Positions 4,556 through 18,850 of a stretch of 29,227 nt of DNA are shown one piece after another. The position numbers and the translations under genes were made by a program. The number at the start of each line of letters is the position of its first letter. Within the stretch, counting starts at the first letter, position 1. Under the pieces are notes generated by a model. That model had not been told where the DNA came from. It ran no database searches and saw only the letters and a list, made by a program, of their open reading frames with translations. Source of the DNA: an uncultured Lachnospiraceae bacterium (GTDB taxonomy: Bacteria > Bacillota > Clostridia > Lachnospirales > Lachnospiraceae); NCBI GenBank assembly GCA_910588755.1, contig CAJUQZ010000022.1, positions 3,728 to 32,954 on the forward strand. Direction: 5' to 3'.

Positions 4556-6498
4556 ATCAAGCGCACAGTCAATACTACAGTTACCAGGAATTTATAGCAG
4601 ACCTGCTTGCCTGGGGCGACCAGATCTGCGGACAGCAAAACGAAAACGAAGCCGTAACTGAAACTGAAATAAAAACCAACCCCGAAACAAAATCCTTGTC
4701 CTTCCTGACATTATTGCAAAAATCAGCGGAAAGTGCCGACCAGGGGATTTTCTCGCCCTTTTTATACACCGCCCTCTCCGCGCAGCTGGCGCAGGAGGAC
4801 ATGCTGTTGTTTGCCGCCGCCTTCTATGCAAATCTGAACGGGGAACTGCTCACGCCCGAAATGTGGCATCTTTTTGCCGGTCACGAAAAAACCGACATAC
4901 TGGAGGCAGAACTATATTACCAGTCTGCCCCCCTTTTATATATACGCACGGATGCCGGGCTGCAGATCGTGCCCCAGATTGCCCTCTTTTTGCAGGGCGC
5001 CTGTCTGGAACGACAGAACCTTCCCGGTATGCACTGGTACTATGATATCAAGGACAGTCTCCCTCCCCTCGGAAAAACCATTCAGTTATACCGCAAAATC
5101 GATGCCTGTCTCTCTCTCGTACCGGGCAAAAAATTGGTCTATCTGCAGGGGGAACCAGGCAGCGGGCGCCGGTTAAACTATGCCTATCTTGCCGCAAAGT
5201 CCCACATGAGCCTGGCTGTAATCTCCTACGAGGCGCTGCAGTCCGGGCAACAACTGCGGGAAATCCAAATTGAATGCCTGCTGCACCATGCGCTGTTTGT
5301 CATTGAACTGCCCGCGCAGCCGGCAGACCTGGCACCCCTTATGCGCTGGCTCTCGCAGGAGGAAACCATATTCCTGTTGGGCACAAAGCCCAATCTGCCG
5401 GAGGCCGTCACTTTTTCGCGGCAGTACCTTCCTTTTTCGGTCTGCGCGCAGCAGGTGCTTGCGGACAAGGAACTGTACGAACAGATGACGCAGGCTTATT
5501 CATGGGAGCGCGAGGACGTGCGGACGGATTTTTTAAACCGCTACAACTTCCTGCCCGGCAGAATGCGCAGCATACTCGAACTTGCCAAAGCCTGCGCGCT
5601 AAGCCAGGGCAGCGGCGCCATCACCGGGGAATACCTGCGCAACGCCATTTTGGGCGTCTCCTCGCACTGTCTAGACCAGTACGCCACCAAGATTCAGGGG
5701 CTGTACCAGATGGACGACCTGATTCTCCCGGAACGCCCCAAGCAGCAGCTTGCGCACATTATAAACCGCGTCCGCAACCGGAAGCTGGTCTACGAGACCT
5801 GGGGATTTCTGGAAAAATCAGCCTACGGCAACGGCACAGCCATGATCTTTGCAGGGCCGCCGGGCACCGGAAAGACGATGGCCGCACAGGTCATGGCATC
5901 GGCGCTTGGCATGGAGCTCTACCGCATCGAACTGCCCGCCGTCGTGGACAAATACATCGGTGAGACGGAGAAAAAATTAAACCGCATCTTTGACGAGGCG
6001 GAGAAAAGCATGGCGATTCTCTTCTTTGACGAGGCGGATGTATTATTCTCAAAGCGTACAGAAGTAAAAGAGTCCAACGACAAGTACAGCAACATGGAAA
6101 TCGCCTTTCTGCTGCAGAAGATGGAGGAGTATGAGGGCGTGAGTATCCTTGCGACCAATTACCTGCAGAATTTTGACAGCGCCTTCCACCGCCGCGTCTG
6201 CGATATTATCAATTTCCCGCTGCCAGACGCCGACATGCGCCTGCAGATGTGGCAGTCGATGCTCCCCTCAAAGCTTCCGGTGTCGGACGACATTGACTTT
6301 CACTTCCTCGCGGCGCACTTCGAGCTGTCCGGCAGCATGATTAAAAACGCGCTGATCTATGCCAGCTTTCTGGCCGCGGAGGACAAAACGCCGCTTCTTA
6401 CAATGGAACAAATACTGAAAGGACTGCGTCACGAGCTTGAAAAAAGCGGCAAAAAATTAAGCCGTGACGAGTATGGAGAATATGGGCACTTATTTTGA
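4552..6498 (+). CDS. AAA+ ATPase with a long N-terminal domain and a single C-terminal AAA module (Afp15/Pvc15-like eCIS ATPase)
   Basis: The sequence reads FAGPPGTGKTMAAQVMASALGMELYRIELPAVVDKYIGETEKKLNRIFDEAEKSMAILFFDEADVLFSKRTEVKESNDKYSNMEIAFLLQKMEEYEGVSILATN...FHRR. This covers Walker A, Walker B and the arginine-finger region. An AAGGAG SD lies 5 nt upstream, and the ATGA overlap with the regulator stop suggests translational coupling. Confidence 0.9.
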   Translation: MNQAHSQYYSYQEFIADLLAWGDQICGQQNENEAVTETEIKTNPETKSLSFLTLLQKSAESADQGIFSPFLYTALSAQLAQEDMLLFAAAFYANLNGELLTPEMWHLFAGHEKTDILEAELYYQSAPLLYIRTDAGLQIVPQIALFLQGACLERQNLPGMHWYYDIKDSLPPLGKTIQLYRKIDACLSLVPGKKLVYLQGEPGSGRRLNYAYLAAKSHMSLAVISYEALQSGQQLREIQIECLLHHALFVIELPAQPADLAPLMRWLSQEETIFLLGTKPNLPEAVTFSRQYLPFSVCAQQVLADKELYEQMTQAYSWEREDVRTDFLNRYNFLPGRMRSILELAKACALSQGSGAITGEYLRNAILGVSSHCLDQYATKIQGLYQMDDLILPERPKQQLAHIINRVRNRKLVYETWGFLEKSAYGNGTAMIFAGPPGTGKTMAAQVMASALGMELYRIELPAVVDKYIGETEKKLNRIFDEAEKSMAILFFDEADVLFSKRTEVKESNDKYSNMEIAFLLQKMEEYEGVSILATNYLQNFDSAFHRRVCDIINFPLPDADMRLQMWQSMLPSKLPVSDDIDFHFLAAHFELSGSMIKNALIYASFLAAEDKTPLLTMEQILKGLRHELEKSGKKLSRDEYGEYGHLF

Positions 6499-7540
6499 AG
6501 AAGAACACGAAAGATCACAATGGGAATCCGGACAGGCCCTTCTGCACAGCGAATCCGTCAAAAAACACAATGACGGCCAACGGGAGAACGACAGGGAACG
6601 CAGCAAGGAAAACGAATCGTACCGCGTGCAAAATTCTTACGGAACCCTCCGCTATCTCAAAAAAGACAAAAAGAAGGGTGAGGAAAAAGAAGGCTTTGCC
6701 GTGGAGGCCTTCGAGGCGCCAAACACCCGTCTCCACACGGACGCGGAAAAACACCTGGACCGCAAGAGCATCAAGAAAGTAAAGCAGAATCATAAGCATA
6801 CCCTATATTCCTCCGAGCTTCCCCTGCGCGACCAGGCGCTCTTTATCGACATGCGGGGCGGCAAAAAAAGTGCGGACATGATCCAGTACATGAAGACGCT
6901 TGTCCAAAAACAAGGGCACCAGACCTTAAAGGACACCTTTGGTTTCCTGGACCAGGAGGAGGAGCGCGCGGAGCTAGAAGCCCTGAAGGAAAAAAGAAAA
7001 TCAGAGGAAAGCAATGAACAGGCATTGATGCAGAAATCAGAAAAAAGCCCTGAACAGGATTTGACACAGAAATCAGAAAAAAACCCTGAACAGGCATTGA
7101 TGCAGAAATCAGCACACAAGCCTGAACAAGAAACCGAGGAAAAAGACTTCGCTTCCCACGAAGACATGATATCCCAGAGAGAACATCAGTTTGAGAATAA
7201 TAAGCGCATCGATACCCTAAACAGCCGCCTTCGCAGAAAAGAAGCCTTAGAACGCCAGCTTCGAAACGATCTGCAGGTCATGCTGGACCAGCGTGGCCGG
7301 GAGGAGGTGCTTGAAGCACAAAAGGACCCCTCGCAGAATGCGTCTGAAACTGCTGACACCAAACAAAATCCAAAGCAGAGCGCTGCCAAAAAGGACGATT
7401 CCACGCGGAGGCGCTTTCGCGTGGACACAGAGGTTTCAGAGGCCGACGGAACCGTTTCCGGCGCGGACGAAGATGTTTTCGGGACAGATGACTCCTCCGG
7501 CCCCGACGAGGACGGAATGCCTCAGGATACAGTTCCTTAG
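6473..7540 (+). CDS. Hypothetical, highly charged K/E/Q/D-rich protein with 12-aa tandem repeats, probably largely disordered
   Basis: This is a long open frame overlapping the 3' end of the ATPase gene. Possible starts are GTG 6464, ATG 6473 and ATG 6482. I recognise no enzymatic motif. The composition is low-complexity, so the coding call rests on ORF length, co-orientation and the in-frame repeat structure. Confidence 0.6.
   Translation: MENMGTYFEEEHERSQWESGQALLHSESVKKHNDGQRENDRERSKENESYRVQNSYGTLRYLKKDKKKGEEKEGFAVEAFEAPNTRLHTDAEKHLDRKSIKKVKQNHKHTLYSSELPLRDQALFIDMRGGKKSADMIQYMKTLVQKQGHQTLKDTFGFLDQEEERAELEALKEKRKSEESNEQALMQKSEKSPEQDLTQKSEKNPEQALMQKSAHKPEQETEEKDFASHEDMISQREHQFENNKRIDTLNSRLRRKEALERQLRNDLQVMLDQRGREEVLEAQKDPSQNASETADTKQNPKQSAAKKDDSTRRRFRVDTEVSEADGTVSGADEDVFGTDDSSGPDEDGMPQDTVP
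7013..7130 (+). repeat. Three full 36-nt in-frame tandem repeats plus a partial fourth, encoding (N/P)EQ(A/D)L(M/T)QKSEK(S/N)
   Basis: Read directly from the sequence: aatgaacaggcattgatgcagaaatcagaaaaaagc / cctgaacaggatttgacacagaaatcagaaaaaaac / cctgaacaggcattgatgcagaaatcagcacacaag / cctgaacaag... Confidence 0.9.
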
Positions 7541-9144
7541 CATTCCATTTTCGCCTTGTACTCCAGACACAGCATTGTAATATCGTCAAACTGCGGCGCT
7601 TCCCCCACGAACGCATCCAGGTCCGCTTTGATTTCCGGCAGCAGTTTTATCGGCGGCAGGGCTGCATTTTTACAGAGCACATTTTTCAGCCGCTCCATCC
7701 CATAGAGTTCATTGCCCTCATTGGCCGCCTCTGTGACGCCGTCCGTATACTGGAAAATCTTATCCCCTATTTCCAGCTGCATGGAACCGCACTGGTATTG
7801 TATATCCTCAAGCCCGGCAAGGACAAACCCTGCTTTGATCTTATAAGGTTCATACGTTTTGCCCTTTTTGCACAAAAAGGGGATCTCATGGCCCGCATTG
7901 ACAAAGCAAAACTCCCCTGTCACAAGGTCCAGCACACCCTCAAAGGCAGTGATAAACATTCCTTCTGAGTTGGATTTACACAGCAGATTGTTCACCTCTG
8001 TAAACACCTCGCCCAGATTTCTTCCCGGCTTTGTATGATCCTTAATCAGCGTCTTGCCGATCACCATAAAGAGTGCGGCGGGCACTCCTTTACCGGAAAC
8101 ATCTGCCATGACAATCGCAAGATGACTATTGTCCACCATGAAGAAATCATAAAAATCGCCGCCCACTTCCTTTGCCGGGTTCATGCTTGCATAGATATCA
8201 AATTCCTTCCTGTCCGGAAATGCCGGAAAAATTCCAGGCAGCATATCGGCCTGTATCTTCGTTGCCACGTTCAGTTCAGCGCCAATCCGCTCCCTCTCCG
8301 CTGTGATCGTCTTGATATCCGTTATGTACAGCTCTATCCTGCCGATCATGTTATTGAAAGAATCGGACAACCATTTAATCTCATTGTTGTCCTTAAATGT
8401 GACCGGCTCAAGCGTGAGGCTCCCTTTTTCATAAGAATCAATATACTTTGTCAATGCAATGATGGGGCTTGCCACACCCGTGTCGATCACCCTGACCATG
8501 ATCGCAGTAATCACAACAAGCGCTACGACAATGAAAAAGAAGATTTTCAGCACATAACTGTTGATTTCCCGCTCCACTCTGGTCAGCACATAATCGCCCT
8601 CCACCATAGCAGCAACTTCACCGTTTCTGTCAAAAACAGGCGCCCACACAGAAATAGATCTTCCAAACCCCACATCTTCGCCGTATACCACCTGCGTAGA
8701 TGCGCTTTTGGCCTTCACATCGGGCAGCAGATAGGTATATTCTGTCTCCCTGTATTCAAAGACAGAACCAAACGCAGATATATTGTCCATATCGTCCTGA
8801 TCGGTATAAGCGTCGATCACATACACGAAATGGTCTTCATAAGGCACCATGAGATACAGATAACTCAGTCCCGACGTATTTGCCTTGACGTTGTTGAACC
8901 GGGACAGCAGCGCGTCATATGCCTCATCCGTACTGCCCGTATCAACATATTGGACAATCTTATCCCCATCAATCTCATTTGCCAGCATCTTCACAATGCC
9001 AAGGGCCTTGTCATAATAAAAATTGATATAAGTATTATAAAACGCTTTGTAACTGATGCATATCAAAATAAAACTCATAACAGCAACCAATATACATATG
9101 ATGCCAATGATCTTTCTCCTCAGGCCTATTCGTTTTTTATTCAT
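7537..9144 (-). CDS. Membrane-bound PP2C (SpoIIE/RsbU-type) serine phosphatase with domain order TM, extracytoplasmic Cache-like sensor, TM, HAMP, PP2C
   Basis: The N-terminal TM segment is IIGIICILVAVMSFILICI and the second TM is IFFFIVVALVVITAIMV. PP2C motifs are EVGGDFYDFFMVDNSHLAIVMADVSGKGVPAALFM, ...VNAGHEIPFL... and QYTDGVTEA...DDITMLCLEY. The start overlaps the GNAT stop (ATGAATAA). Confidence 0.9.
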   Translation of the reverse strand: MNKKRIGLRRKIIGIICILVAVMSFILICISYKAFYNTYINFYYDKALGIVKMLANEIDGDKIVQYVDTGSTDEAYDALLSRFNNVKANTSGLSYLYLMVPYEDHFVYVIDAYTDQDDMDNISAFGSVFEYRETEYTYLLPDVKAKSASTQVVYGEDVGFGRSISVWAPVFDRNGEVAAMVEGDYVLTRVEREINSYVLKIFFFIVVALVVITAIMVRVIDTGVASPIIALTKYIDSYEKGSLTLEPVTFKDNNEIKWLSDSFNNMIGRIELYITDIKTITAERERIGAELNVATKIQADMLPGIFPAFPDRKEFDIYASMNPAKEVGGDFYDFFMVDNSHLAIVMADVSGKGVPAALFMVIGKTLIKDHTKPGRNLGEVFTEVNNLLCKSNSEGMFITAFEGVLDLVTGEFCFVNAGHEIPFLCKKGKTYEPYKIKAGFVLAGLEDIQYQCGSMQLEIGDKIFQYTDGVTEAANEGNELYGMERLKNVLCKNAALPPIKLLPEIKADLDAFVGEAPQFDDITMLCLEYKAKMEC

Positions 9145-9724
9145 AGCCGCCTCCGTTCCTGTCTCTGCCTCTTACTTCCAGAAGTTCTATCAGCGCGCCG
9201 CATCGGCAGTCATCACCGCATATGGGGCACTTGATGTTATATTTTTTTAGGTCTTTATAAAACAGGGGAATTTTTTTCTGATACACTGCTTCTCCGATTC
9301 CCCTTAACGGATTTTGGGCCGGAACGCTGCCGTCCGGATAAATCCACAGTTCCACAAGCGCAAGCGCAACTTTTTTGCTAAGAAGCGCTCTTTTCATCCG
9401 GCGGACCAGTTCTTTCGCAACCCCTTTTTTTCGGTACGCTTCCAGCACCAGAAGTCCGTCAGGCGTATACAGTTTCCTGTCTCCTGCCACTTCCCGGATC
9501 TCGTTTTCCAGTTCAGGGTGTGGATAGGTGAATCCAATCCCGCCCTGTCCCGAAAAAAATCCCACCAGCTTCCCTCCGTCACAAGCCTTCAAACCCAGGT
9601 AATCATCAGTATGAAATTCCTTCCGTATTGTGTCGCGAATGTAACCGCCTCTATTCAGGTAAGTCTCGTACAAAGCGATAATCTGATCTAAATCTTTTTC
9701 TTCTATACAGGAATATGTAACCAT
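9137..9724 (-). CDS. GNAT-family N-acetyltransferase with a C-terminal Cys cluster
   Basis: The acetyl-CoA motif A-like segment reads LLVLEAYRKKGVAKELVRRM. The C-terminal cluster reads CPICGDDCRCG. A GGAGG SD lies 9 nt upstream of the start. The gene overlaps the downstream phosphatase gene by 8 nt. Confidence 0.75.
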   Translation of the reverse strand: MVTYSCIEEKDLDQIIALYETYLNRGGYIRDTIRKEFHTDDYLGLKACDGGKLVGFFSGQGGIGFTYPHPELENEIREVAGDRKLYTPDGLLVLEAYRKKGVAKELVRRMKRALLSKKVALALVELWIYPDGSVPAQNPLRGIGEAVYQKKIPLFYKDLKKYNIKCPICGDDCRCGALIELLEVRGRDRNGGGYE

Positions 9725-9730
9725 CGCATC

Positions 9731-12634
9731 CTACCTCCTCTTTCTGTCCGCTCCCAAAAACAGGCAAACCAGTAAAAACATCAAAAGAAACAGCACAAAA
9801 ATACCAGTTCGATTCCCAAGTGTGAGCGCAGCGCCATATATAACCGGTCCAAGCGTCTGCCCGGCATTTTCAAACATGGCATAAATTCCCATCGCATTTC
9901 CCATTCCTGCCTCGGAACACTCATCCAGCCCTTCAAAATAGGTATACTGGCAAGTGTACGCAAAGGAGATCACCACAGCTAGGATAATCATGCCTGCAAA
10001 GACACTGACCGGATTCGGAAACAGGGCAAACAATGCCATGTCAAAAGCCATGCACAGACTTGCCAGAACCACGCTCTTCTTCGCCCCAAGCGTCCTCAAA
10101 AGGTATTTCGAGAGCAGCGGCCCTATATAGATCACAAGCATACCACAGCCAAGATAAATCCGCCCGATGGTGACTTCATCGACACCAAACTGTTCCACAT
10201 ACAACGGGAAGAAATATTCCCGGTAGGACAGCGACATCATAAACGGAACCAGAATCAGCGCAAAGAAAGCCATGACACGCTTTTGGAACAAAAAACGGAC
10301 AATATGCATACGCTCCTGTGTCTCTTTCTTACCGTTACCGAATTTCACATTTTGCGCCTGTATCGTAAGCAGCAGCCCCAAACCTAAGAAGATGGCACCT
10401 GCCAGATATACGATCCTGTAATCGGCAAACGCGAGAATGATCGAGCCAAGCCCTGCCCCGATCGTGACGCCGGAAAGCACTCCCGCCGAGACATCGGCAA
10501 AGGCAGACGCTACGTACTCATCATTGCCGCCCATAGACGCCATTGTGTTGGAAGTCACATACACAGTTCCCATTCCCATACCAATCAGTAGTTTCCCTGC
10601 CAGGATTCCCATATAACCGGGAACCAACAGGCAGATGATAAAACCTGCCATCTGGCCGGTAAGCCCCAGCTGCATAACTCTCTGTATGCCGAATTTCTCC
10701 GCCAGCCTGCCGCCGCACGTTGAAAATATGGCAGCCATCATCAGCTGCAGGGATATCGGAAGCGCAATGGCAAGTTCGCGCGAAATAGGGAACACGTCTG
10801 TATAGAGTCTGGAACAGAGAATCGCGATAAAGGCATCCTGCATGGAATCCGTCATATATGACAGAAAAACCATCAGCCGTATTGGCATCTGCTGTGTGAT
10901 ATCCCATTTTGCTTTCGGTATCCCCTTTCTTTTCTCAAAAAAAGAAAGGACAAAAATGCACTCCAATACCAGCATGATCATGACACCGCAGCTGCAGATG
11001 ACCGTTATGATGTTTTCTGCCACCAGTTCCCTTTTTTCCTGCACTGCCTTGTCAAGACTCGAACCCACCTCAATAAACGCAATGATGGCGCCGCTGTTGT
11101 CCCTGACAGGCAGCAGCGTAAACATCCATGAACCATAGGAACTAATCTCACTGACCGTATAGCTTTCTCCCGTCACCAGGACCTGTGTGTACTCATTGTC
11201 GCCAAACGCATAGATTGGCTGCCCGCATACCGTCGTGTCCTCATAGTCCATCAGACAGTTGATCGTTTTGCCATCTGTCGTATACAGGGCATAGTAGTAA
11301 TATGCCCCGTGGTCATAACTGGTCAATATCATTTGATCAAGCCTGTTCTTAATCTCCATATACTCCTGCGAGTGGTAATCGGACAGCCTTCCCAGTCGTT
11401 TCAGTTTCTCTGCGTCCACCTGCTGTCTGAGACTTTCCGCAAAAATCTGCATATTGTCCATAATCAGTCTGTCCTGATTGTCCATCATGGAGGAAATCGA
11501 GGAATAAGACGCGATCGCCGCCACAATTGCAGAAGAAACAACTACCAGCACAATTCTGCTAAAACCAGCTTTATCTGGTATACCCCGCACAATCTTTGTG
11601 ATGATTGTTATGACCATGACGACAGCTGCTATGCCGGCCATCATCAGCAAAATCCAGAAGTTCACCACCCTGAAATAGTTTCCGACGCCAGTGCTCTCCC
11701 ATACTGTCGGTATCATATCCGAAACATTCAGACTGATAAAGCGCTCATTATCGGTCGCGAGTATGGTTCTGCCATCTTCCGACAGACAAATTGCATAGAG
11801 TATGTTATCACTCTGACAGACGGCCTTTGTCTCACCAGGTGCAGACAGGGAAAAATGCATGATACAACCCGTCTGCAAATCTGTATAATACACCTGGCCG
11901 TCCACAGACGCAATGTTCCACGGAATCTGGTTCCCTACATAACATGGAACTTCTGACCAGTTCCCAGTCCGCAGGGAATGATAATATATTTCGCCTAACC
12001 TGGTCGTGATGACCAGCGTTTGACTTGCTGCATCATAGGCGGCATCACTGACATAAAACGCACAGGGAACTTCCGCTGACTTCTCCACCTGACAATCTTC
12101 ACCTTCCACATGAATCTTGTATATGTCTATCCTCGCATCTTCTTTCTTCAGAAAGTATACACTGCCTTCATACGCCTGCACTTCCAATATACCGCCATAC
12201 TGTAGGGGCGGATTTTCACTGAGCGCATAATCAAACTCATATATGATTTCCCGCTGATGCCCTGTGATTTTGATAATGCGCTCTTTCTGTATGCGGTTGC
12301 CCTGCTCCCCCGAGATCACGTCCGCTATGTAGATTCCGCCAGAATCATCTCCGCAGACGTGGGCGGCATAGAAAAAATCTGCCCGTTCGCTTCCTCCGGA
12401 GAGTTTTCGGATCAATTCCCCTCTGCTATTTAAGACAATAACCGTTTTTTTGCCCTGATCGATCACATACGTGCTGCCGTCGCTCCCCCGCGCAGCCTCG
12501 CCGACCGATTCGAATGTATATTCTTTTGTGAAGGGGGACTGGGACACTGCCTCGCGATTCCAGTACAAAAAAACCGCCAGGCAGACTCCCACCAGCAGAC
12601 AACCGGCAATCCTGAACCATTTTCTCTTTTCCAT
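9731..12634 (-). CDS. 967-aa fusion protein with domain order signal-anchor TM, beta-propeller-like repeats, 2 TM, Cache-like domain, MFS transporter
   Basis: The N-terminal roughly 300 aa contain about six repeats of the type STYVIDQGKKTVIVLN / GIYIADVISG / GSVYFLKKED / QTLVITTRLGEIYY / GQVYYTDLQTG / GRTILATDNE. The middle domain reads ...YYYYALYTTDGKTINCLMDYED...SYGSWMFTLLPVRDNSGAIIAFIEVG. The C-terminal roughly 400 aa are polytopic, with the MFS-like loop GGRLAEKFGIQRVM. Confidence 0.8.
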   Translation of the reverse strand: MEKRKWFRIAGCLLVGVCLAVFLYWNREAVSQSPFTKEYTFESVGEAARGSDGSTYVIDQGKKTVIVLNSRGELIRKLSGGSERADFFYAAHVCGDDSGGIYIADVISGEQGNRIQKERIIKITGHQREIIYEFDYALSENPPLQYGGILEVQAYEGSVYFLKKEDARIDIYKIHVEGEDCQVEKSAEVPCAFYVSDAAYDAASQTLVITTRLGEIYYHSLRTGNWSEVPCYVGNQIPWNIASVDGQVYYTDLQTGCIMHFSLSAPGETKAVCQSDNILYAICLSEDGRTILATDNERFISLNVSDMIPTVWESTGVGNYFRVVNFWILLMMAGIAAVVMVITIITKIVRGIPDKAGFSRIVLVVVSSAIVAAIASYSSISSMMDNQDRLIMDNMQIFAESLRQQVDAEKLKRLGRLSDYHSQEYMEIKNRLDQMILTSYDHGAYYYYALYTTDGKTINCLMDYEDTTVCGQPIYAFGDNEYTQVLVTGESYTVSEISSYGSWMFTLLPVRDNSGAIIAFIEVGSSLDKAVQEKRELVAENIITVICSCGVMIMLVLECIFVLSFFEKRKGIPKAKWDITQQMPIRLMVFLSYMTDSMQDAFIAILCSRLYTDVFPISRELAIALPISLQLMMAAIFSTCGGRLAEKFGIQRVMQLGLTGQMAGFIICLLVPGYMGILAGKLLIGMGMGTVYVTSNTMASMGGNDEYVASAFADVSAGVLSGVTIGAGLGSIILAFADYRIVYLAGAIFLGLGLLLTIQAQNVKFGNGKKETQERMHIVRFLFQKRVMAFFALILVPFMMSLSYREYFFPLYVEQFGVDEVTIGRIYLGCGMLVIYIGPLLSKYLLRTLGAKKSVVLASLCMAFDMALFALFPNPVSVFAGMIILAVVISFAYTCQYTYFEGLDECSEAGMGNAMGIYAMFENAGQTLGPVIYGAALTLGNRTGIFVLFLLMFLLVCLFLGADRKRR

Positions 12635-12666
12635 CTGATTCCCCTGTACAATGCTGCGCTAAATTC

Positions 12667-12963
12667 TTATATGATTGACAGGATATCTGCAAAACCTGTC
12701 ACCTCAAAGATTTCCATTATTGTATCATTTACATGAGCCACTTTCATGCTGCCCTGCCTGTTCATCGTCTTCTGTGCGCCCAGCAGAACACGCAGTCCCG
12801 CGGATGACAGATAATCCAGCGCCGCCATGTCAATCGTAAGCTCCGTCACGCCTTCAAGGGAATCTTTCAGCATGCCCTCAAGCTCTGGTGCCGTGCTTGT
12901 ATCAAGCCGTCCTTCTAAAGCCAGTGTTAAATTGTTTCCATTTTGTGTTTTTGTTATTTTCAT
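12667..12963 (-). CDS. STAS-domain anti-sigma-factor antagonist (SpoIIAA/RsbV-like), copy 1
   Basis: The 98-aa protein reads MKITKTQNGNNLTLALEGRLDTSTAPELE...TIDMAALDYLSSAGLRVLLGAQK...VNDTIMEIFEVTGF. The S-x-G-L phospho-serine motif is present. Confidence 0.9.
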   Translation of the reverse strand: MKITKTQNGNNLTLALEGRLDTSTAPELEGMLKDSLEGVTELTIDMAALDYLSSAGLRVLLGAQKTMNRQGSMKVAHVNDTIMEIFEVTGFADILSII

Positions 12964-12974
12964 GAATTTCTTCC

Positions 12975-13034
12975 TTTCTTATCTGCACATTTCTTATCTG
13001 CGCATTTCTTATCTGCACATTTCTTATCTGCACG
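12975..13034 (-). repeat. Four perfect or near-perfect 15-nt tandem direct repeats in the leader of the STAS gene
   Basis: The plus strand reads tttcttatctgcaca / tttcttatctgcgca / tttcttatctgcaca / tttcttatctgcacg at 12975, 12990, 13005 and 13020. On the minus strand the unit is TGTGCAGATAAGAAA. The array ends 11 nt from the STAS ATG and abuts its SD (AGGAAGAA). Confidence 0.95.
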
Positions 13035-13167
13035 TTGGCCAGCTCAATTTGCCTGTACATGATCCAGGAAAGCAAGGCTCCTCGCCAACATGACCTATTA
13101 TATTATCTATACTTTTTTTATATAATTTCCGTTACAGGAACGAATGTTTTGCGCCTTTCTGTACAGT

Positions 13168-13578
13168 CTATATCAGTTTCCTAATACGCAATATATTCTG
13201 TCCGTCCTTATACTCATAAGAAACATCATCCATCGTCCTCTTTACCATGTAGATTCCCAGACCGCCAATCTCGCGTTCTTCAGCGGAAAGCGTGATGTCA
13301 GGGTCTTCCCTGGCAAGCGGATCATACGGAATGCCATTGTCCATAAACGTTATCACAACCGCAAGCGGGTCCTTCGCCACCTCAACGCGCACTGTTGCGC
13401 TGCCAATTTCAGGATTGTAAGCATAATGGGCAATATTGCTGAAAAGTTCTTCAACCGCTATATCAACCTGCATCTGCGTCTTTATGGGACAATGATACTG
13501 CTCGAGCTGCGCATCAACAAATTCGAGCACTCCAGGTACGTTTTCAATTGTTGCCTCAACCATCCATTCTTTCATCAT
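13168..13578 (-). CDS. RsbW/SpoIIAB-type anti-sigma-factor-like serine kinase (HATPase_c_2), stand-alone
   Basis: The sequence reads MMKEWMVEATIENVPGVLEFVDAQLE..QMQVDIAVEELFSNIAHYAY (N-box), ITFMDNGIPYDP (G1) and IGGLGIYMVKR (G2). The start is ambiguous among TTG 13581, ATG 13578 and ATG 13575. The ORF-track start at 13611 is probably too far upstream. Confidence 0.85.
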   Translation of the reverse strand: MMKEWMVEATIENVPGVLEFVDAQLEQYHCPIKTQMQVDIAVEELFSNIAHYAYNPEIGSATVRVEVAKDPLAVVITFMDNGIPYDPLAREDPDITLSAEEREIGGLGIYMVKRTMDDVSYEYKDGQNILRIRKLI

Positions 13579-13707
13579 CAATCCCCCATGCCTCCAATCC
13601 CCGGGCCACATGTTTCTTGCAGGCCGTTCCCTCCTGCTTCTTTTTCATTGTCATTGTGAACTTTCCTTCCCTTTCCTTCCTAAGGAACTGTCCCTTTTTT
13701 ATTTCTA

Positions 13708-14202
13708 TTACCAAAACCTGTCGAGGGACTGTCCCCTGATACTGTACTGCATAATCTTATCCCTAAGCTCTGCGGTCCTTTTCTTATTGGTATGATCCTT
13801 GTCATAAATATCATCCAGCAAAAGTTCGACGTTCTTCTGCATGAGGTGAAAACTCTGCGCCATACTTGTCATGATATCAACAGCATTTCTCGGATAATTC
13901 ACAATAAATTTCTCCACAGAGTCCTTTGTAATCCGCATCAGCAAGACATCGTCATACGCCACAGCTGTATAGATACAGGGTTGATCAGAAAATATGTTCA
14001 ACTCCCCAAAGCACCTTGGCTTTGAATAGATTCCTACAATGTGCTCATCCTTTTCCCCATACCGCATATAGATCGCTACAGAGCCGGATAAAATCTTATA
14101 CATTGCATCACATTTTTCTCCTTCGCGCATAATCATCTCATCTGCGCTGAATTTCTGCATTGCGCTGTTTTTGTTTGCTGTATCCTGTTCCAATTCCGCC
14201 AT
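13708..14202 (-). CDS. Stand-alone cyclic-nucleotide-binding (CAP effector) domain protein with no DNA-binding domain
   Basis: The sequence reads MIMREGEKCDAMYKILSGSVAIYMRYGEKDEHIVGIYSKPRCFGELNIFSDQPCIYTAVAYDDVLLMRI, which matches the beta-roll/phosphate-binding-cassette pattern (FGE...). A GGGAGGA SD lies upstream. Confidence 0.75.
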   Translation of the reverse strand: MAELEQDTANKNSAMQKFSADEMIMREGEKCDAMYKILSGSVAIYMRYGEKDEHIVGIYSKPRCFGELNIFSDQPCIYTAVAYDDVLLMRITKDSVEKFIVNYPRNAVDIMTSMAQSFHLMQKNVELLLDDIYDKDHTNKKRTAELRDKIMQYSIRGQSLDRFW

Positions 14203-14223
14203 ATTTTTATTCCTCCCGTCTTT

Positions 14224-16020
14224 TTATATTTTTGGTGTGGTTTCGGCATTCGGTTTATTCAGGACTATGACCAGTACATTGAGTCCCATTTTGCGCGCGT
14301 AATCGACGCGGTCGGCAATGGACGAGATGATCCGAATGCCAAACTGTTGTTCTTCGCCAGTTTTGTCCGCTGTATGCAAGTAATTCCAGGGGTCAAATGC
14401 GGCCCCGTTATCACGCATACGTATCATGACGGACGCTGGTTTATCTATAATCAATACATCAAACCATTTCTTTTCTCCTGGCCTGAAAGCATGCTTCACC
14501 ACATTTCCGGCCATTTCCTCTATACACAGGGAAATCTCATTGAGCATTGTTTCATCAATATCGTGATGATGCCCTAACTTGCAGATATCAGATGCAATCC
14601 CCATAACCTCGTCCATACTGTTCCCGATGGAGATCTCCAGTCTGTCTTTGGGATTTCCTCCAAAATCTTCTTCCAAAAGCATATAGGAAGAAATCTCCGG
14701 GGAAAATTTCCTGTTCCTGTACGTGACATACAATACGACTGTAAGCAGCGTCAATATTTCCCCAAGAAGAAACGCAATCCACACGCCTGTGCTGCCCACA
14801 GGCTTAATCAGTATCAATGCAATAATCACAGTAAACACCAGATTTTCGAGTATACAGATCAGTGTGGCCAGACCTGTTTTCTTCGTACTTTGATAAAAGT
14901 TCATCAGTACATTGTTCAGCAATGCCACGGGCATTCCAACCGCAAACAGCCGTATCGCCAGCGTTGACATTTCCCTGATATCCGGCCCGGTAACGCCAAA
15001 CGCGTCTGTTAAAACCGCAGGGAATAACAGCAGTATCACCGCCGCGATGCCGCTGAGCGTCAGTCCTATTTTGAGGGTGGTTTTCAGCGTATCCTTTAGG
15101 GCTGTCCCATCCTCCTCCCCATAGAACATACCCACTACCGGAATGACTGCCTGACCGATCCCGACAACCAATGCACCCATGATATTGTTGGCCTGTGTCC
15201 GGACATTCAGCGCTGTGACCGCACCCACGCTGACTGCTGTCACCATTAGATTGTTCAGGAACATTACTTTTAAGGTATCGCTAATACGGCTGACTGCCGT
15301 GGGCGCTCCTGTAACAATGATGGAGAGAAGTTCCCTGAAAGCGCCCCTGACCGGCACCAGCTTTAAGGTGCTGTAAGATTTGATAAAATGCGAGCAGCCG
15401 ACGAAAACCGCAATATAATAGCTGACCGCTGTCGCCAGCGCCATGCCAAACATTCCTTTATGCAGTACCAGCACCATGAGCAGATCCAGCGCGATATTAC
15501 ATGCAGACATAACGATGATACATATGACCGGAAGCCTGGGCGAACCGTCAATACGGATAAACCCCATCAGCGCCGTCATCATGATCGTAGGAAGCGCACC
15601 CAAAAAATAACCGCGTAAATACTGCGTGGTCAGTTCCTTCAATACGCCCTTTGCGCCCAAAACGTCCGCAATCTGTGATGTGAGAAGCAGACCGCCCGCG
15701 GTGAGAAAAAGGCCTGCAAAAAACGCAAAAAACATGGTAATGGTAAATATACGGCAGACCTGCTCCCTGTCCCCCCTGCCCATAGCCTGCGAGGCCCTTG
15801 CTGTACCGCCTCCTGAGCAGATATTCCCAAAAGCGGAGAGGAGCAGGCTTACAGGCCCCACAACGCCCATTGCGCCCAGCGCGTCCGGACCAAGATACCT
15901 GCCGACGATAATATTATCAATCAGCATTCCTACCGTTGCTGTCAAAGCGGACAAAATAGAAACCGTCACAAAAGAATAATATAACTTCCGTACAATATAG
16001 TCATTCCTCGTGCCATTCAT
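14224..16020 (-). CDS. MATE-family efflux transporter fused to a C-terminal cytoplasmic RsbW-like HATPase domain
   Basis: The first roughly 450 aa are typical of a MATE transporter (YYSFVTVSILSALTATVGMLIDNIIVGRYLGPDALGAMGVVGP..., 12 hydrophobic segments). The C-terminal roughly 140 aa read LEISIGNSMDEVMGIASDI...ISLCIEEMAGNVVKHAF (N-box), VMIRMRDNGAAFDP (G1) and QQFGIRIISSIADRVDY (degenerate G2). Confidence 0.85.
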   Translation of the reverse strand: MNGTRNDYIVRKLYYSFVTVSILSALTATVGMLIDNIIVGRYLGPDALGAMGVVGPVSLLLSAFGNICSGGGTARASQAMGRGDREQVCRIFTITMFFAFFAGLFLTAGGLLLTSQIADVLGAKGVLKELTTQYLRGYFLGALPTIMMTALMGFIRIDGSPRLPVICIIVMSACNIALDLLMVLVLHKGMFGMALATAVSYYIAVFVGCSHFIKSYSTLKLVPVRGAFRELLSIIVTGAPTAVSRISDTLKVMFLNNLMVTAVSVGAVTALNVRTQANNIMGALVVGIGQAVIPVVGMFYGEEDGTALKDTLKTTLKIGLTLSGIAAVILLLFPAVLTDAFGVTGPDIREMSTLAIRLFAVGMPVALLNNVLMNFYQSTKKTGLATLICILENLVFTVIIALILIKPVGSTGVWIAFLLGEILTLLTVVLYVTYRNRKFSPEISSYMLLEEDFGGNPKDRLEISIGNSMDEVMGIASDICKLGHHHDIDETMLNEISLCIEEMAGNVVKHAFRPGEKKWFDVLIIDKPASVMIRMRDNGAAFDPWNYLHTADKTGEEQQFGIRIISSIADRVDYARKMGLNVLVIVLNKPNAETTPKI

Positions 16021-16028
16021 ATGTATTA

Positions 16029-17027
16029 TTATCCCTTCTTACTTTCTGCCTGCTTCTTTAACCCCACAGTCATTGCGTCCAATATATCATTCTGGGAAAT
16101 AATAAAGCCCAAAAACTGCCTGATCTGTTCCAGATTATCCACAACGCCGCAGTCATCAATCTCCAAAAGCGACATATAGGCCATCGCCACACGATACGCA
16201 ATGAACAATTCCAGGTGATCCCAATAGTGCGCATCACATTCCTTATTCAGTTCATATCCGATCTTAAAATAAGGAAGCATCTCCTCATAAAGCACTTTTC
16301 TGCAGTCTTCCCCCGCCCTGTATCCCATCAAAAAACAGGCCTGGACAAAACTTGCCACATCATACAGATAATTTGCATACGTACATCCATCAAAATCAAA
16401 CAGCCAGATATTATTTTCTTCCACAAAAAAATTATTGATATGAAAATCCCCGTGGCAGATGCCGTACCGACCCAATTCTTCCGGCAGGGCATCTACCTCC
16501 TGCTGGACAGCGCAAATCCTCGTTTCAATCTCAGGCGGAATCTTTTCCTTCACGCGGTTTTTCAGTTCTGCAAAAGTATCACTCATTCTTTTGCGGCTGT
16601 AGCGAATCCCCAGCTCTCTTTCATTGGTGCTGACATGGTGGATTGCCCCCAGCAGGTCGCCCACGCAGATAAAAAACATCGGCTTCATCTCCGTAGTCAG
16701 CTTTATGTTTCCGCGGGCCGTACGGAACATGCTGGCCCGGTACAACCTGCCGTCAATTTCAAATTCCTCAAGCAGAAGTCCATTCAGGGACGCATTAGGC
16801 TCACAAACCGTCTGCTTAAATGGCTTTAAGTCATCTACCCACATCAGTTCGCTTAATATCTCGCTTCTGGTTTTTTTCGGAGAGATACTCACACGGATCA
16901 TATATGGCTTTTCTGAAAAAACGAACGCGTAATTTTGTGTGGAATAACGGCATACCGCCTCCTTGATATCTACCCCGTAGCGTTCCAGCAAAACCTCGCG
17001 TATCTTCTGTTTTAATTCTTCATTCAT
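16029..17027 (-). CDS. APH/choline-kinase-fold phosphotransferase
   Basis: The Brenner/catalytic loop reads ICHGDFHINNFFV and the metal-binding segment reads IWLFDFDGC. Only 8 nt separate its stop from the MATE start. Confidence 0.8.
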   Translation of the reverse strand: MNEELKQKIREVLLERYGVDIKEAVCRYSTQNYAFVFSEKPYMIRVSISPKKTRSEILSELMWVDDLKPFKQTVCEPNASLNGLLLEEFEIDGRLYRASMFRTARGNIKLTTEMKPMFFICVGDLLGAIHHVSTNERELGIRYSRKRMSDTFAELKNRVKEKIPPEIETRICAVQQEVDALPEELGRYGICHGDFHINNFFVEENNIWLFDFDGCTYANYLYDVASFVQACFLMGYRAGEDCRKVLYEEMLPYFKIGYELNKECDAHYWDHLELFIAYRVAMAYMSLLEIDDCGVVDNLEQIRQFLGFIISQNDILDAMTVGLKKQAESKKG

Positions 17028-17159: not shown

Positions 17160-17187
17160 ATTGTAGTGAATTGCAGATAAAAGGCAA
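17160..17187 (-). promoter_or_regulatory. Candidate sigma-A promoter for the APH-to-phosphatase operon
   Basis: The minus strand reads TTGCCT (17187-17182), a 16-nt spacer, then TACAAT (17165-17160). This would leave a leader of about 125 nt. It is a weak consensus match. Confidence 0.3.
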
Positions 17188-17246: not shown

Positions 17247-17864
17247 TCAAATTTGCAGGATTTCCTCCTTCCATGCCGCAGTCTGTGAAAATAATTCTTC
17301 CATATTCATTTTCGAAAAATCTGTTGTGTCAACTTTGATTTGTCTGCCACCAACGCAAAAAGCATCAAATCCCCTCTTTTCGATTCCACAGACAAAATCC
17401 TCATAAGAAATCTTTTTCGCTTTCAGGATTTTAGGATCATTCTCTTTCTTTTCCGGATAACAGCCATTCACTACATGCCCCCTGTGCCTGTCAGGGCTGC
17501 TTTCCCGCTCCAAAAAACGCTGGTAAATCGCTTTGTAATCCCCTGTCAGGGTAATGGTCAACGCAAAATATTGATATTTTTCCAAAAGATTTTTCATTCC
17601 CTGTTCTGACGCATATTCAAAATTATTCTCCAGAATCAAAGGTAATCCCGCCTTCATAAGCTAGCCTGCGACATCATACATGATTTCCATACTGGCAACT
17701 CCAAGCTTTACTTTTTCTGCTCTCGACTGAAAACCAACCGTATCAAACAAAAGTTCTTTTATGGCATCCTTTGAAATCACAGGCAGTTTTAATCTTTCTG
17801 ACAGCACTGCTGCCATCGTGCTTTTTCCTGCTGCCGGAATACCTGTCACTATTATACAATACAT
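17247..17864 (-). pseudogene. P-loop kinase-like NTPase (AAA_33/CPT/shikimate-kinase-like fold) interrupted by a single in-frame TAG
   Basis: The N-terminal part reads MYCIIVTGIPAAGKSTMAAVLSERLKLPVISKDAIKE...DVAG and stops at TAG (17663-17661). The same frame continues L-M-KAGLPLILENNFEYASEQ... to 17247. Together the two track ORFs (67 aa and 136 aa) form one protein of about 205 aa. Confidence 0.7.
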
Positions 17865-18650: not shown

Positions 18651-18701
18651 AAGCAATCCCTCGTTTTCGTGTTTGCAATTGTTTTTGTTTACTTGTATTT
18701 G

Positions 18702-18730
18702 ATTATACTTGTTTATTCCTGAATATACAA
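18702..18730 (-). promoter_or_regulatory. Candidate sigma-A promoter of the DeoR gene
   Basis: The minus strand reads TTGTAT (18730-18725), a 17-nt spacer, then TATAAT (18707-18702). Confidence 0.5.
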
Positions 18731-18850
18731 GACTTACTGACAAATATACACTTTATTTTTTGCCGCTGCGCTTTTTCACCATATCTTTCTTCCCATTTGT
18801 CCGATTTGTTCTGATAATTGGCAGTATTCTGTGAGAAAATCAATTTCCTA

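Follow-up and report, generated by a model that had tools for sequence, protein, structure and literature searches.

An eight-gene cluster from a gut Lachnospiraceae bacterium brings together a STAS antagonist, an RsbW-like serine kinase, a membrane PP2C phosphatase and a MATE pump whose cytoplasmic C-terminus carries an RsbW/SpoIIAB-like domain. The cluster may specify a transporter-centred partner switch, a reading given about an even chance of being correct, in which membrane sensors would set the phosphorylation state of the STAS protein, and unphosphorylated STAS would dock on the pump tail, thereby gating efflux and/or recruiting a small-molecule kinase. The window referred to below is the whole stretch of DNA analysed (29,227 nt). 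The genes, in cluster order, and their domains are as follows.

7537-17027, minus strand: cluster of eight co-directional genes (ORFs and Pfam)
16029-17027, minus: AmiN-like small-molecule kinase, APH fold, 332 aa (Pfam APH, E 3e-15)
14701-16020, minus: MATE transporter core of the pump, DinF type, aa 1-440 (Pfam MatE, E 8e-33)
14227-14700, minus: C-terminal cytoplasmic RsbW/SpoIIAB-like domain of the pump, aa 441-598 (HATPase_c_2, E 5e-12)
14266-14571, minus: HATPase_c_2 stretch of the pump tail, aa 484-585 (Pfam, E 5e-12)
13708-14202, minus: stand-alone cNMP-binding-fold protein, 164 aa (cNMP_binding, E 7e-20)
13168-13611, minus: stand-alone RsbW-type serine kinase, ORF of 147 aa (HATPase_c_2, E 1e-23)
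12667-12963, minus: STAS antagonist, 98 aa (STAS, E 2e-15)
12802-12804, minus: codon of the predicted STAS phospho-acceptor, Ser54 (alignment)
9731-12634, minus: propeller/Cache-like/MFS membrane protein, 967 aa (MFS_1, E 4e-26)
11684-12523, minus: its extracytoplasmic NHL-type six-bladed propeller (AlphaFold2, Foldseek)
11057-11368, minus: its Cache/PAS-like domain (AlphaFold2 model)
9749-10882, minus: its DHA1-type MFS core (MFS_1, E 4e-26)
9137-9724, minus: GNAT-like protein, 195 aa (Acetyltransf_1, E 1.5e-5, weak)
7537-9144, minus: membrane HAMP-PP2C phosphatase, 535 aa (SpoIIE, E 2e-43)
8332-8472, minus: its HAMP domain, weak (Pfam, E 2e-3)
7558-8130, minus: its SpoIIE-type catalytic domain (Pfam SpoIIE)

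All eight ORFs were found on the minus strand at the coordinates of the original prediction, and a Pfam check matched every one to its proposed family. Successive intergenic spacings are 8, 21, ~96-126, 204, 32 and 6 nt and the last pair overlaps by 8 nt, so the description of the genes as tightly packed is true of most of them but fails at the two longer gaps (~96-126 and 204 nt). Two DNA elements lie in the spacers.

17160-17187, minus: promoter-like site TTGCCT-16-TACAAT (consensus scan, 9/12 matches)
12975-13033, minus: 15-nt tandem repeat GTGCAGATAAGAAAT, 3.9 copies (TRF score 111)

The promoter-like site, in the 219 nt of spacer that precede the APH gene, is a possible start of the transcription unit, but no more than a candidate, because the total of such sites in the region is not above shuffled expectation. 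The tandem repeat occupies part of the 204-nt gap, immediately upstream of the STAS ribosome-binding site, and a 12-mer of it occurs 4 times against 0.22 expected.

The pump core scores 145 bits against NCBIfam matE, and its best PDB match in a profile search is DinF-BH (5c6o/4lz6, E 6e-29). Asp35 occupies the column of DinF-BH Asp40, which is marked by the D40N mutant chain 5c6n, and is retained in 68 of 78 members of the pump-fusion family. One clade (L056-L067) lacks both Asp35 and Asp179, which weakens the case there for efflux as the output. That the tail is of the RsbW/SpoIIAB type, as first proposed from the sequence alone, was borne out by profile (HATPase_c_2) and by fold. PF13581 was matched by 40/40 diverse pump tails, the tail profile found RsbW (6m36, E 6e-6) and next SpoIIAB in the PDB, and the AlphaFold2 model (pLDDT 83.5) returned SpoIIAB, UsfX and RsbW as its top 18 Foldseek matches (target-normalised TM 0.72-0.81). 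A histidine-kinase CA domain was ruled out for the tail, all 18 of these matches being anti-sigma kinases. Across 78 sequences there is hardly any variation in the N-box (E-E-x-x-G-N) or at the G1 Asp, which indicates that the tail is under selection; it is strongly conserved and not decaying. A mirror-tree test gave practically the same correlation for the tail as for the pump core (r 0.689 versus 0.688). The G1 Gly is variable, with Cys in its place in 31/78 sequences, only one Gly is left in the G2 box, and the lid is short. Given these degenerate G1/G2 boxes, the tail may act catalytically, as a kinase, or serve for docking alone.

The STAS and SpoIIE assignments stood up to profile searches, the STAS protein also scoring above cut-off against TIGR00377 (70.7 bits). 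Its Ser54 aligns with RsbV Ser56 and with the Ser that is replaced by Ala in the SpoIIAA mutant chain 1tid_B, and this residue is invariant in all 46 STAS domains found near pump fusions. The stand-alone kinase, for which gene callers place the start at ~13581 (137 aa), has complete N, G1 and G2 (GGLG) boxes, matches RsbW 6m36 at E 5e-5, and is 36-52% identical to stand-alone kinases and to the kinase domains of PP2C-kinase fusions in related modules. The phosphatase has an extracytoplasmic domain flanked by two TM helices, shows the metal-binding motifs GGDFYD, ADVSGKG, TDG and FDD in its translation, and gives the best match for the PP2C domains found in related modules. The window contains three HATPase_c_2 domains, the number claimed originally, together with two STAS and two PP2C genes; the additional copies form a second, more divergent switch pair that adjoins PPTase and NRPS genes.

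21921-24358, minus: second partner-switch pair (Pfam; gene calls in L001)
21921-22223, minus: second STAS (Pfam)
22235-24358, minus: HAMP-SpoIIE-HATPase_c_2 fusion (Pfam)

The two STAS proteins of the window are 42% identical, and cross-talk between the second pair and the main cluster is possible.

The propeller/Cache-like/MFS architecture proposed for the 967-aa protein is upheld by its AlphaFold2 model (pLDDT 85.9); in Foldseek comparisons the resemblances are to NorA, MdfA and VMAT for the core (TM ~0.8), and to Pizza6/NHL and the PknD sensor domain for the propeller. Its family has 34 members only, from Lachnospiraceae. The GNAT-like protein (25.7 bits versus an Acetyltransf_1 cut-off of 20.7) bears a C-terminal Cys-rich motif; its gene always accompanies the MFS and PP2C genes, with the orthologous position in six other loci (L015, L033, L050, L093, L094 and L095), and it belongs to the MFS/PP2C module. 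The cNMP-binding protein keeps the fold assigned to it but not the phosphate-binding Arg, which is a Cys when the protein is aligned with PKA RI-alpha and M. tuberculosis CRP. It has no DNA-binding domain, its gene was found in just one relative (L015), and it is a lineage-specific accessory.

The pump-tail fusion was confirmed in at least 153 species, at full length down to 27% identity, and represents a large family without a name. Both domains are present in 120/120 best homologues, and searching with the tail only, at E <= 1e-10, yielded 230 cluster representatives; among the best 150 of these, most are ~580-610 aa long, with the match at ~440-590. Linkage was counted in the 53 fusion loci that have 3 kb or more of sequence to either side. 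A STAS gene lies within 300 bp of the fusion in 16 of them and within 3 kb in 25, PP2C lies within 3 kb in 18, and at least one switch gene (STAS, PP2C or RsbW-like) lies within 10 kb in 38, in many cases directly next to the fusion or overlapping it; the other 15/53 have no switch gene within that distance. The check on neighbourhood conservation that accompanied the prediction thus turned out positive: both the fusion itself and its association with STAS, PP2C and RsbW-like genes are kept across many genera. Two compact modules recur (APH / pump-tail / STAS / 5TM_LytS-PP2C-HATPase, and STAS / pump-tail / PP2C-HATPase), their surroundings differing from genome to genome and one adjoining mobile-element genes.

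In the favoured scheme, the RsbW/SpoIIAB-like domain on the DinF-type MATE would replace the free anti-sigma factor of canonical systems. The stand-alone kinase would phosphorylate the STAS protein on Ser54 and the membrane PP2C would dephosphorylate it; the sensor part of the phosphatase (extracytoplasmic domain and HAMP) would perceive an envelope or xenobiotic signal, with a second input possibly coming from the 967-aa protein. Unphosphorylated STAS would bind the pump tail and alter pump activity, for example by relieving autoinhibition, and its docking may also draw the AmiN-like kinase to the pump, so that a toxic compound would be phosphorylated and expelled under regulation. The spread of the fusion suggests an undescribed control of efflux via protein phosphorylation.

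The APH-fold kinase has intact catalytic motifs (H192-G-D194-F-H196-x-x-N199 and D211-F-D213), and its family profile matches the amicoumacin kinase AmiN (6sui/6sum, E 2.5e-31, residues 14-290). The idea of an antibiotic response gains weight from this relationship. The P-loop kinase gene upstream of the cluster, originally counted with APH and GNAT among the antibiotic-inactivating fold families, is split by an in-frame TAG. The APH gene adjoins or overlaps the pump gene in 32/77 relatives and is fused to STAS in L026, L038, L053 and L076; STAS-APH, APH-STAS and STAS-APH-HATPase_c_2 fusions adjoin pump genes. Because such fusions exist, the kinase appears to be part of the switch, more than a bystander resistance enzyme. 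AmiN acts in a kinase-phosphatase cycle by which a biosynthetic cluster confers self-resistance (PMC7314540). A rather unlikely reading, compatible with the favoured scheme, is that APH and pump provide self-resistance and export for the neighbouring NRPS gene cluster: before its export the peptide would be phosphorylated intracellularly, much as AmiN phosphorylates amicoumacin, and the switch would set the timing. An NRPS of C-A-T-reductase architecture is encoded, together with a PPTase, 8 kb upstream in the same orientation, and in four loci (L016, L041, L032 and L036) an NRPS is followed directly by (STAS) APH and pump. An NRPS occurs within 10 kb in only 7/77 fusion loci, however, and the compact modules stand in unrelated contexts, which a stand-alone resistance or 'bioscavenger' role fits better.

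The catalytic-looking Glu, Asn and Asp kept in the tail mean that it could be an active kinase that writes on STAS, not a receiver. The pump would then be the input, its tail a serine kinase tied to the transport cycle or substrate load (flux sensing) that phosphorylates STAS for a target elsewhere or for the PP2C-kinase protein. The near-invariance of the N-box and G1 Asp is what one would expect of nucleotide binding or catalysis, two-gene modules (STAS-APH and pump-tail) keep the phospho-Ser although no further kinase or phosphatase gene lies within 10 kb, and the clade lacking the DinF-type Asp residues is what a non-transporting sensor might look like. Such a role is nevertheless improbable: the G1, G2 and lid features described above speak against it, no other output protein is conserved among the fusion neighbours, and a second kinase is unneeded in the compact modules, which already have a complete RsbW-type kinase fused to PP2C.

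Gene order in relatives argues that the cluster is best read as two joined modules, 'APH + pump' and 'STAS + MFS + GNAT + PP2C + kinase', which would have fused so that one STAS is now common to both. The window's gene set recurs in identical order in L015 and in a different order in L033 and L050, and the MFS967, GNAT-like, PP2C and kinase genes (with or without STAS) occur in L093, L094 and L095 with neither pump nor APH. As it is found there without any pump fusion, this second module must have another output in those loci. The original interpretation is partly supported: its tail, STAS and SpoIIE calls, the conservation and the absence of a recurrent sigma factor nearby have held, but the eight genes do not form a single indivisible operon, and its P-loop kinase is broken. 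The existence of the pump-free loci could also mean that two independent systems merely lie side by side, with STAS, kinase and PP2C serving the MFS/GNAT module alone and the pump tail partnerless, but this is very unlikely: the modules stand together in at least four lineages, in two gene orders, the pump module normally has its own STAS and the cluster has just this one, and the window STAS is nearer to STAS genes directly abutting pump fusions elsewhere (52-67% identity) than to two of the three STAS proteins from MFS-only loci (32%, 36% and 52%). Highly improbable, too, is a canonical anti-sigma system acting in trans, in which the stand-alone kinase, matching RsbW and SpoIIAB models as it does, would sequester a sigma factor encoded elsewhere and the tail would be a decoy or irrelevant relic, since no large ORF of the 29-kb window has a sigma-70-family domain, no Sigma70 family with two or more members recurs near the fusions (145 neighbouring ORFs, 144 Pfam families, ~60 relatives), self-contained modules move among unrelated contexts, and the tail is conserved.

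The roles of PP2C, STAS with the same phospho-acceptor Ser, and GHKL serine kinase are common to the cluster and to the RsbU/RsbV/RsbW-sigmaB and SpoIIE/SpoIIAA/SpoIIAB-sigmaF switches of Bacillus, whose RsbW and SpoIIAB (with UsfX) are the nearest structures to the pump tail. The cluster differs in that no sigma factor is encoded with it or recurs in its relatives' neighbourhoods, and in that one RsbW-like domain, with degenerate G1/G2 boxes, is covalently joined to a 12-TM MATE. M. tuberculosis Rv1364c is a multidomain PP2C-RsbW-STAS protein feeding into SigF; its fusion of switch components in one polypeptide resembles the PP2C-HATPase_c_2 proteins of related modules, which instead adjoin the pump-tail fusion. 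In the sigma-independent switches BtrU/V/W (Bordetella T3SS), HsbR/HsbA (Pseudomonas) and SypE/SypA (Vibrio fischeri), STAS phosphorylation acts on a non-transcriptional target. To our knowledge, the Btr and Hsb systems have no kinase-like domain on a transporter and no link to a MATE pump or APH-fold kinase. HenR/All4160 of Anabaena is another sigma-independent switch with a non-transcriptional target, in which the STAS domain of All4160 is joined to an enzyme (bioRxiv 10.64898/2026.04.08.717354), a parallel to the STAS-APH fusions of the cluster's relatives; neither it nor SypE/SypA has a kinase-like domain on a transporter or a link to a MATE pump or APH-fold kinase.

AmiN, the closest solved relative of the cluster's APH, shares with it the HxDxHxxN Brenner motif and the DFD, but the two are less similar than the 32-98% identity by which the AmiN-like subfamily is defined (PMC7314540, PMC6156654), and Gln replaces Glu36 in the cluster protein. 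AmiN is not described as linked to STAS or a MATE pump. DinF-BH of Bacillus halodurans matches the pump best among solved structures over the whole 12-TM region, the equivalent of its Asp40 being kept, but has no regulatory domain at its C-terminus. Transporters are also coupled to the STAS/anti-sigma-antagonist world in SLC26/SulP proteins, which have a C-terminal STAS domain, and in MlaB-MlaFE (review PMC8256260). The transporter family differs in the cluster, and the polarity appears to be reversed: here it is the MATE pump that bears the predicted RsbW-like, STAS-binding-type partner, while the STAS protein is free and probably phosphorylatable.

The main gene cluster (nt 7537–17027) consists of eight ORFs, all on the minus strand and co-directional. 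The domains predicted for these genes from the sequence by eye were each matched by Pfam, as follows:

16029–17027, minus strand: APH kinase (332 aa; Pfam E-value 3e-15)
14224–16020, minus strand: MatE (E 8e-33) with a C-terminal HATPase_c_2 domain (aa 484–585, E 5e-12)
13708–14202, minus strand: cNMP_binding (Pfam E 7e-20)
13168–13611, minus strand: stand-alone HATPase_c_2 kinase (Pfam E 1e-23)
12667–12963, minus strand: STAS (98 aa; Pfam E 2e-15)
9731–12634, minus strand: MFS_1 within a 967-aa protein (Pfam E 4e-26)
9137–9724, minus strand: GNAT, a weak match (E 1.5e-5, above the cut-off)
7537–9144, minus strand: SpoIIE (E 2e-43) with a weak HAMP match

NCBIfam gave the same picture, with RsbW, SpoIIAB and RsbA models matching both kinase-like domains of the cluster, and the anti-sigma antagonist superfamily and MATE efflux models matching the STAS protein and the pump, respectively. 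Successive genes are spaced by 8, 21, about 96–126, 204, 32 and 6 nt, and the last two overlap by 8 nt. Matches to the window are found in metagenome contigs and one MAG (GCA_948547625.1), and the closest named relatives are Lachnospiraceae. The unusually long 204-nt gap carries, directly upstream of the STAS ribosome-binding site, a 15-nt tandem repeat (nt 12975–13033; GTGCAGATAAGAAAT on the coding strand) of 3.9 perfect-looking copies, which might serve as an operator array or be a variable repeat. The corresponding gap is only ~60 nt in L015, a related locus of 90% identity. No Rfam family was matched anywhere in the window, so that the two larger gaps are without a known riboswitch or leader. 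Consensus scans gave 26 promoter matches (21.1 ± 4.4 in shuffled sequence) and 14 terminator matches (9.0 ± 2.9), neither above expectation, and the minus-strand terminator-like matches in the cluster all lie inside coding sequence.

The second gene specifies a MATE transporter core (aa 1–440) continued by a tail domain (aa 441–598). The core has two MatE stretches (Pfam), and its 12 TM segments and TM1 Asp place it in the DinF subfamily of H+-coupled MATE exporters (MOP superfamily). A profile alignment with DinF-BH spans the whole 12-TM core (residues 15–430, E 6e-29), and pump Asp35 falls on DinF-BH Asp40, a column marked by the D40N mutant chain 5c6n. Asp35 is present in 68/78 family members, the exceptions forming a single clade (loci L056–L067) with Asn at this position and Ala at that of Asp179. 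A flippase identity (MurJ/Wzx) was considered and rejected, as some homologues gave weak MurJ matches but the multidrug MATE models and DinF-BH were best. In the known MATE topology both termini are cytoplasmic, which would place the tail where STAS and ATP are.

As a single sequence the tail had no match among PDB sequences, and so a profile of 40 sequences and a structure model were needed. The profile matched RsbW (6m36; E 6e-6) and next SpoIIAB, and PF13581 was matched by all 40 of 40 diverse tails. Foldseek searches with the AlphaFold2 model (pLDDT 83.5, pTM 0.78) returned only anti-sigma-factor kinases at ranks 1–18 (target-normalised TM 0.72–0.81), namely SpoIIAB (1til, 1tid, 1th8, 1l0o), Mycobacterium tuberculosis UsfX (8ih8, 8jzt) and RsbW (6m36, 6m37), with histidine-kinase CA domains ranking only below these. 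As modelled, the tail is a Bergerat-fold domain nearer to SpoIIAB/RsbW than to histidine-kinase CA domains. Nearly all of the 78 family members keep the N-box (C-I-E-E-M-A-G-N) and the G1 Asp. In 31 sequences Cys stands for the G1 Gly, only one Gly, itself invariant, remains of the G2 box, and the ATP lid is short. Judged from this residue pattern, the tail is clearly under selection, and it would suit an active kinase or, instead, a docking domain that binds nucleotide. Co-divergence with STAS was practically the same for the tail (r 0.689; mirror-tree, partial Mantel) as for the pump core (r 0.688); at this level the comparison shows joint inheritance of the module only, and the STAS-contacting part is not singled out.

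The fusion is not an artefact of gene calling or assembly, since the same continuous ORF occurs on 13 contigs and in >150 species. All of the 120 best homologues (57–100% identity) carry both Pfam domains, and 'MATE family efflux transporter' is the sole source name among them. A scan using one genome per species confirmed 153 relatives, a lower bound that puts the family in at least 153 species. For comparison, 79 loci were kept, with matches that are near full-length down to 27% identity, save for a few truncated at contig ends. They come mainly from Lachnospiraceae, Oscillospiraceae and other Clostridia, the family being concentrated in gut and rumen members of the first two, and a few bins are labelled Eggerthellaceae, Methanomethylophilaceae or Cloacimonadaceae. 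Searching with the tail alone gave 1767 cluster representatives at E ≤ 1e-3, of which 230 reach E ≤ 1e-10; among the 150 best matches listed, most proteins are ~580–610 aa long and match at ~440–590. Variant architectures include MATE with two tandem HATPase_c_2 domains and MATE-HATPase_c_2-HD-CE (homologues P0168, P0178 and P0266). Near-identical modules of the L056–L067 type are found in bins assigned to Eggerthellaceae, Faecalibacterium, Acutalibacteraceae and the archaeal Methanomethylophilaceae, several of them from one study, and this taxonomic scatter points to horizontal transfer or binning error.

By sequence, three partner-switching roles are represented in the window: a STAS protein with a phosphorylatable Ser, a GHKL serine kinase and a PP2C phosphatase. 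The STAS protein passes the TIGR00377 cut-off (NCBIfam), and its Ser54 (codon at nt 12802–12804) aligns with RsbV Ser56 and with the acceptor Ser of SpoIIAA, which is Ala in the mutant chain 1tid_B. The surrounding motif (Y-I-S-S-A-G-L-R) is nearly constant, and the acceptor Ser is invariant in 46/46 STAS domains near fusions. The window STAS is 52–67% identical to those abutting pump genes in loci that lack the MFS module, compared with 42% to the second STAS of the window (nt 21921–22223) and 32–52% to those of MFS-only loci, which indicates that it is of the pump-associated type. In the stand-alone kinase (nt 13168–13611) the N, G1 and G2 boxes are visible as E-x-x-x-N, D-N-G and G-G-L-G, and the 535-aa membrane phosphatase has the PP2C metal-binding motifs (GGDFYD, ADVSGKG, TDG, FDD).

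Gene neighbourhoods were compared by searching the window domains (phmmer) against six-frame ORFs of the related loci, with counts taken over the 53 loci having at least 3 kb on both flanks. A STAS domain occurs within 300 bp of the fusion in 16/53 loci, and the count rises to 25 at 3 kb and to 33 at 10 kb; STAS density is about six times lower at 3–10 kb than in the first 3 kb. PP2C and a further RsbW-like domain are each found within 3 kb in 18/53 loci. Overall, 38 of the 53 have some switch component within 10 kb. Within the cis context, three of the refuting outcomes named with the original prediction did not materialise: profiles support the domain calls, the neighbourhood is conserved and no linked sigma factor recurs. 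The APH gene adjoins the fusion, often overlapping it, in 22/53 loci, all of which belong to the clade of at least ~40% identity. Two compact modules recur, both in unrelated genomic contexts: APH / pump with tail / STAS / 5TM_LytS-(HAMP)-PP2C-HATPase_c_2 (L011, L013, L024, L037), and STAS / pump with tail / PP2C-HATPase_c_2 with overlapping genes (L056–L067). The sensor domains of the phosphatases vary between modules (5TM_LytS, dCache, 2TM-HAMP), as one would expect if the input enters through the phosphatase. The full gene set of the window is found in the same order in L015 and in another order in L033 and L050.

The best PDB match of the APH family profile is the amicoumacin kinase AmiN/hAmiN (6sui, 6sum; E 2.5e-31, residues 14–290), with aminoglycoside and spectinomycin kinases far behind. 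The Brenner motif with its extra His (HGDFHxxN) and the metal-binding DFD motif are intact, and Q31-N32 stands where AmiN-like kinases have E-N (E36/N37). The published AmiN-like subfamily covers 32–98% identity (PMC7314540), and the window protein looks more distantly related than this range. AmiN phosphorylates and inactivates an NRPS-PKS antibiotic in a kinase-phosphatase self-resistance cycle (PMC7314540). Several relatives have APH fused to STAS, either as STAS-APH (~392 aa; L026, L038, L040, L075, L080), as APH-STAS (485 aa; L053) or as STAS-APH-HATPase_c_2 (528 aa; L076, nt 4777–6363). Pfam confirmed the fusions of L026, L038, L053 and L076, and those of L040, L075 and L080 are assigned from phmmer STAS matches, protein length and recognisable kinase motifs. 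The two-domain fusions are mostly found no more than ~50 bp from the pump gene, those of L026 and L076 being 5.2 and 3.6 kb away. As Rosetta-stone fusions, these proteins speak for the small-molecule kinase being a functional part of the switch and not a bystander.

As the most economical reading, we infer that STAS Ser54 would gain and lose its phosphate through the RsbW-like kinase and the membrane PP2C, in answer to a xenobiotic or envelope signal. In its unphosphorylated form STAS would bind the RsbW-like pump tail, as SpoIIAA binds SpoIIAB, and docking would change pump activity and/or bring the AmiN-like kinase to the pump. In the compact modules PP2C already carries a complete kinase, and no conserved candidate receiver other than the pump tail is present. 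Control of MATE pumps is usually thought to be transcriptional. We tentatively propose that phosphorylation-controlled docking of STAS on the MATE tail may both gate the pump and recruit the AmiN-like kinase, giving a regulated complex that would 'inactivate and expel'. Partner switching would then have a transporter as output for the first time, and a MATE pump its first post-translational on/off control; the arrangement would be widespread in gut and rumen Clostridia. A variant compatible with STAS docking assigns APH and pump to the self-resistance and export arm of the adjacent NRPS cluster. An NRPS directly precedes the (STAS) APH and pump genes in L016, L041, L032 and L036, but is nearby in only 7/77 fusion loci; for part of the family, the gene order suggests that the module may serve a nonribosomal peptide cluster in export or self-resistance. 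Alternatively, the tail could be an active kinase and the pump a flux sensor. The conserved N-box and G1 Asp would allow this, but we regard a flux sensor as unlikely.

Homologues of the 967-aa MFS protein number only 34, and all seem to come from Lachnospiraceae. Its AlphaFold2 model (pLDDT 85.9) shows TM1, an extracytoplasmic beta-propeller (aa 38–317), two TM, a Cache/PAS-like domain (aa 423–526), one TM and a 12-TM MFS core. Foldseek placed the core nearest to NorA, MdfA and VMAT (target-normalised TM 0.77–0.84), and in its modelled structure it fits DHA1-type MFS drug/H+ antiporters; the propeller is nearest to NHL/Pizza6 and the PknD sensor domain. In L093, L094 and L095 the genes for the MFS protein, a GNAT-like protein, PP2C and an RsbW-like kinase occur with STAS nearby and without the pump fusion or APH, a sigma-less partner-switch module of its own. 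The window cluster is therefore the junction of two modules, 'APH + pump' and 'STAS + MFS + GNAT + PP2C + kinase', with one STAS shared. The predicted GNAT stands as a match, if a weak one, and its gene belongs to the MFS/PP2C module. The fold of the predicted cNMP-binding protein was upheld, but a Cys aligns with the Arg that binds the cyclic phosphate in PKA RI-alpha and in M. tuberculosis CRP, and there is no DNA-binding domain. Given this substitution, the ligand may be other than cAMP or cGMP. The cNMP gene is a lineage-specific addition to the cluster. The MFS module's existence on its own could be taken to mean that the two modules are independent neighbours; with the shared STAS being of the pump-associated type, this is quite improbable.

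Every sizeable ORF of the 29-kb window lacks a Sigma-70 domain. A further 145 neighbouring ORFs (130–330 aa, from ~60 loci) matched 144 different Pfam families of at most five members each, with no sigma-70 family among those having at least two members. No sigma factor that the kinase might sequester was found in the window, and none recurred near relatives. The predicted absence of a linked sigma factor holds for the cis context, and control of a sigma factor in trans, which would fit the RsbW and SpoIIAB matches of the stand-alone kinase, is a very unlikely explanation.

Other parts of the window were also annotated. The P-loop kinase gene upstream of the cluster (nt 17247–17864, minus strand), counted in the original prediction among the antibiotic-inactivating folds, is split by an in-frame TAG (nt 17662–17664) into ORFs of 67 and 136 aa, and the read-through product matches AAA_18/AAA_33 across the stop. 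The split is also called in other samples (L001, L002, L007). The gene is probably a pseudogene. A second partner-switch pair (nt 21921–24358, minus strand), a 100-aa STAS and a 707-aa HAMP-SpoIIE-HATPase_c_2 fusion, lies immediately downstream of genes for a PPTase (nt 24424–25089) and an NRPS (nt 25308–29066). The NRPS runs off the window end and is 3060 aa long in L001; a 36-nt tandem repeat within its frame (nt 28351–28479, 3.6 copies, 90% matches) sits between a condensation-domain remnant and the adenylation domain. In several relatives (L016, L041, L032, L036, L025) an NRPS of C-A-T-reductase type is directly followed by (STAS) APH and the pump fusion. A methionyl-tRNA synthetase gene (nt 18965–21292, plus strand) is positioned mid-island on the opposite strand, between the NRPS/partner-switch genes and a DeoR regulator (nt 17868–18743). 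Convergent with the main cluster is an operon (nt 1760–7540, plus strand) for a BTAD/MalT-like STAND protein (931 aa), an AAA ATPase (648 aa) and a 358-aa Lys/Glu-rich protein, the gene for which has 36-nt tandem repeats (nt 6998–7128) and shares its last 4 nt with the end of the PP2C gene. This trio adjoins the cluster in contigs of the same species too.

If the STAS-docking reading is true, a covalently attached anti-sigma-type domain together with its cognate STAS, phosphatase and kinase would make a fast, signal-dependent efflux switch, and transporters would join sigma factors as targets of partner switching. A role in antibiotic tolerance or self-resistance in the microbiome is suggested by the tight coupling to a relative of amicoumacin kinase and, in some genomes, to NRPS clusters. 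Sigma-independent partner switches are known in BtrUVW, SypE/A and HsbR/A. HenR/All4160 is another (2026 preprint, bioRxiv 10.64898/2026.04.08.717354). No description of a MATE/anti-sigma-type fusion was found in the literature searched, a partial coverage in which absence is not proof and which included a 2021 review of STAS-only proteins (PMC8256260). A link between STAS and transporters is established for SLC26/SulP (PMC8256260), where STAS is fused to the transporter, whereas in the window STAS is a separate 98-aa protein and the transporter bears the kinase-like domain. The components of the cluster are ordinary members of partner-switching families; what the literature searched does not describe is the reverse polarity, with an anti-sigma-type domain on a MATE pump, conserved together with a free phosphorylatable STAS, PP2C, a kinase and a relative of an antibiotic kinase.
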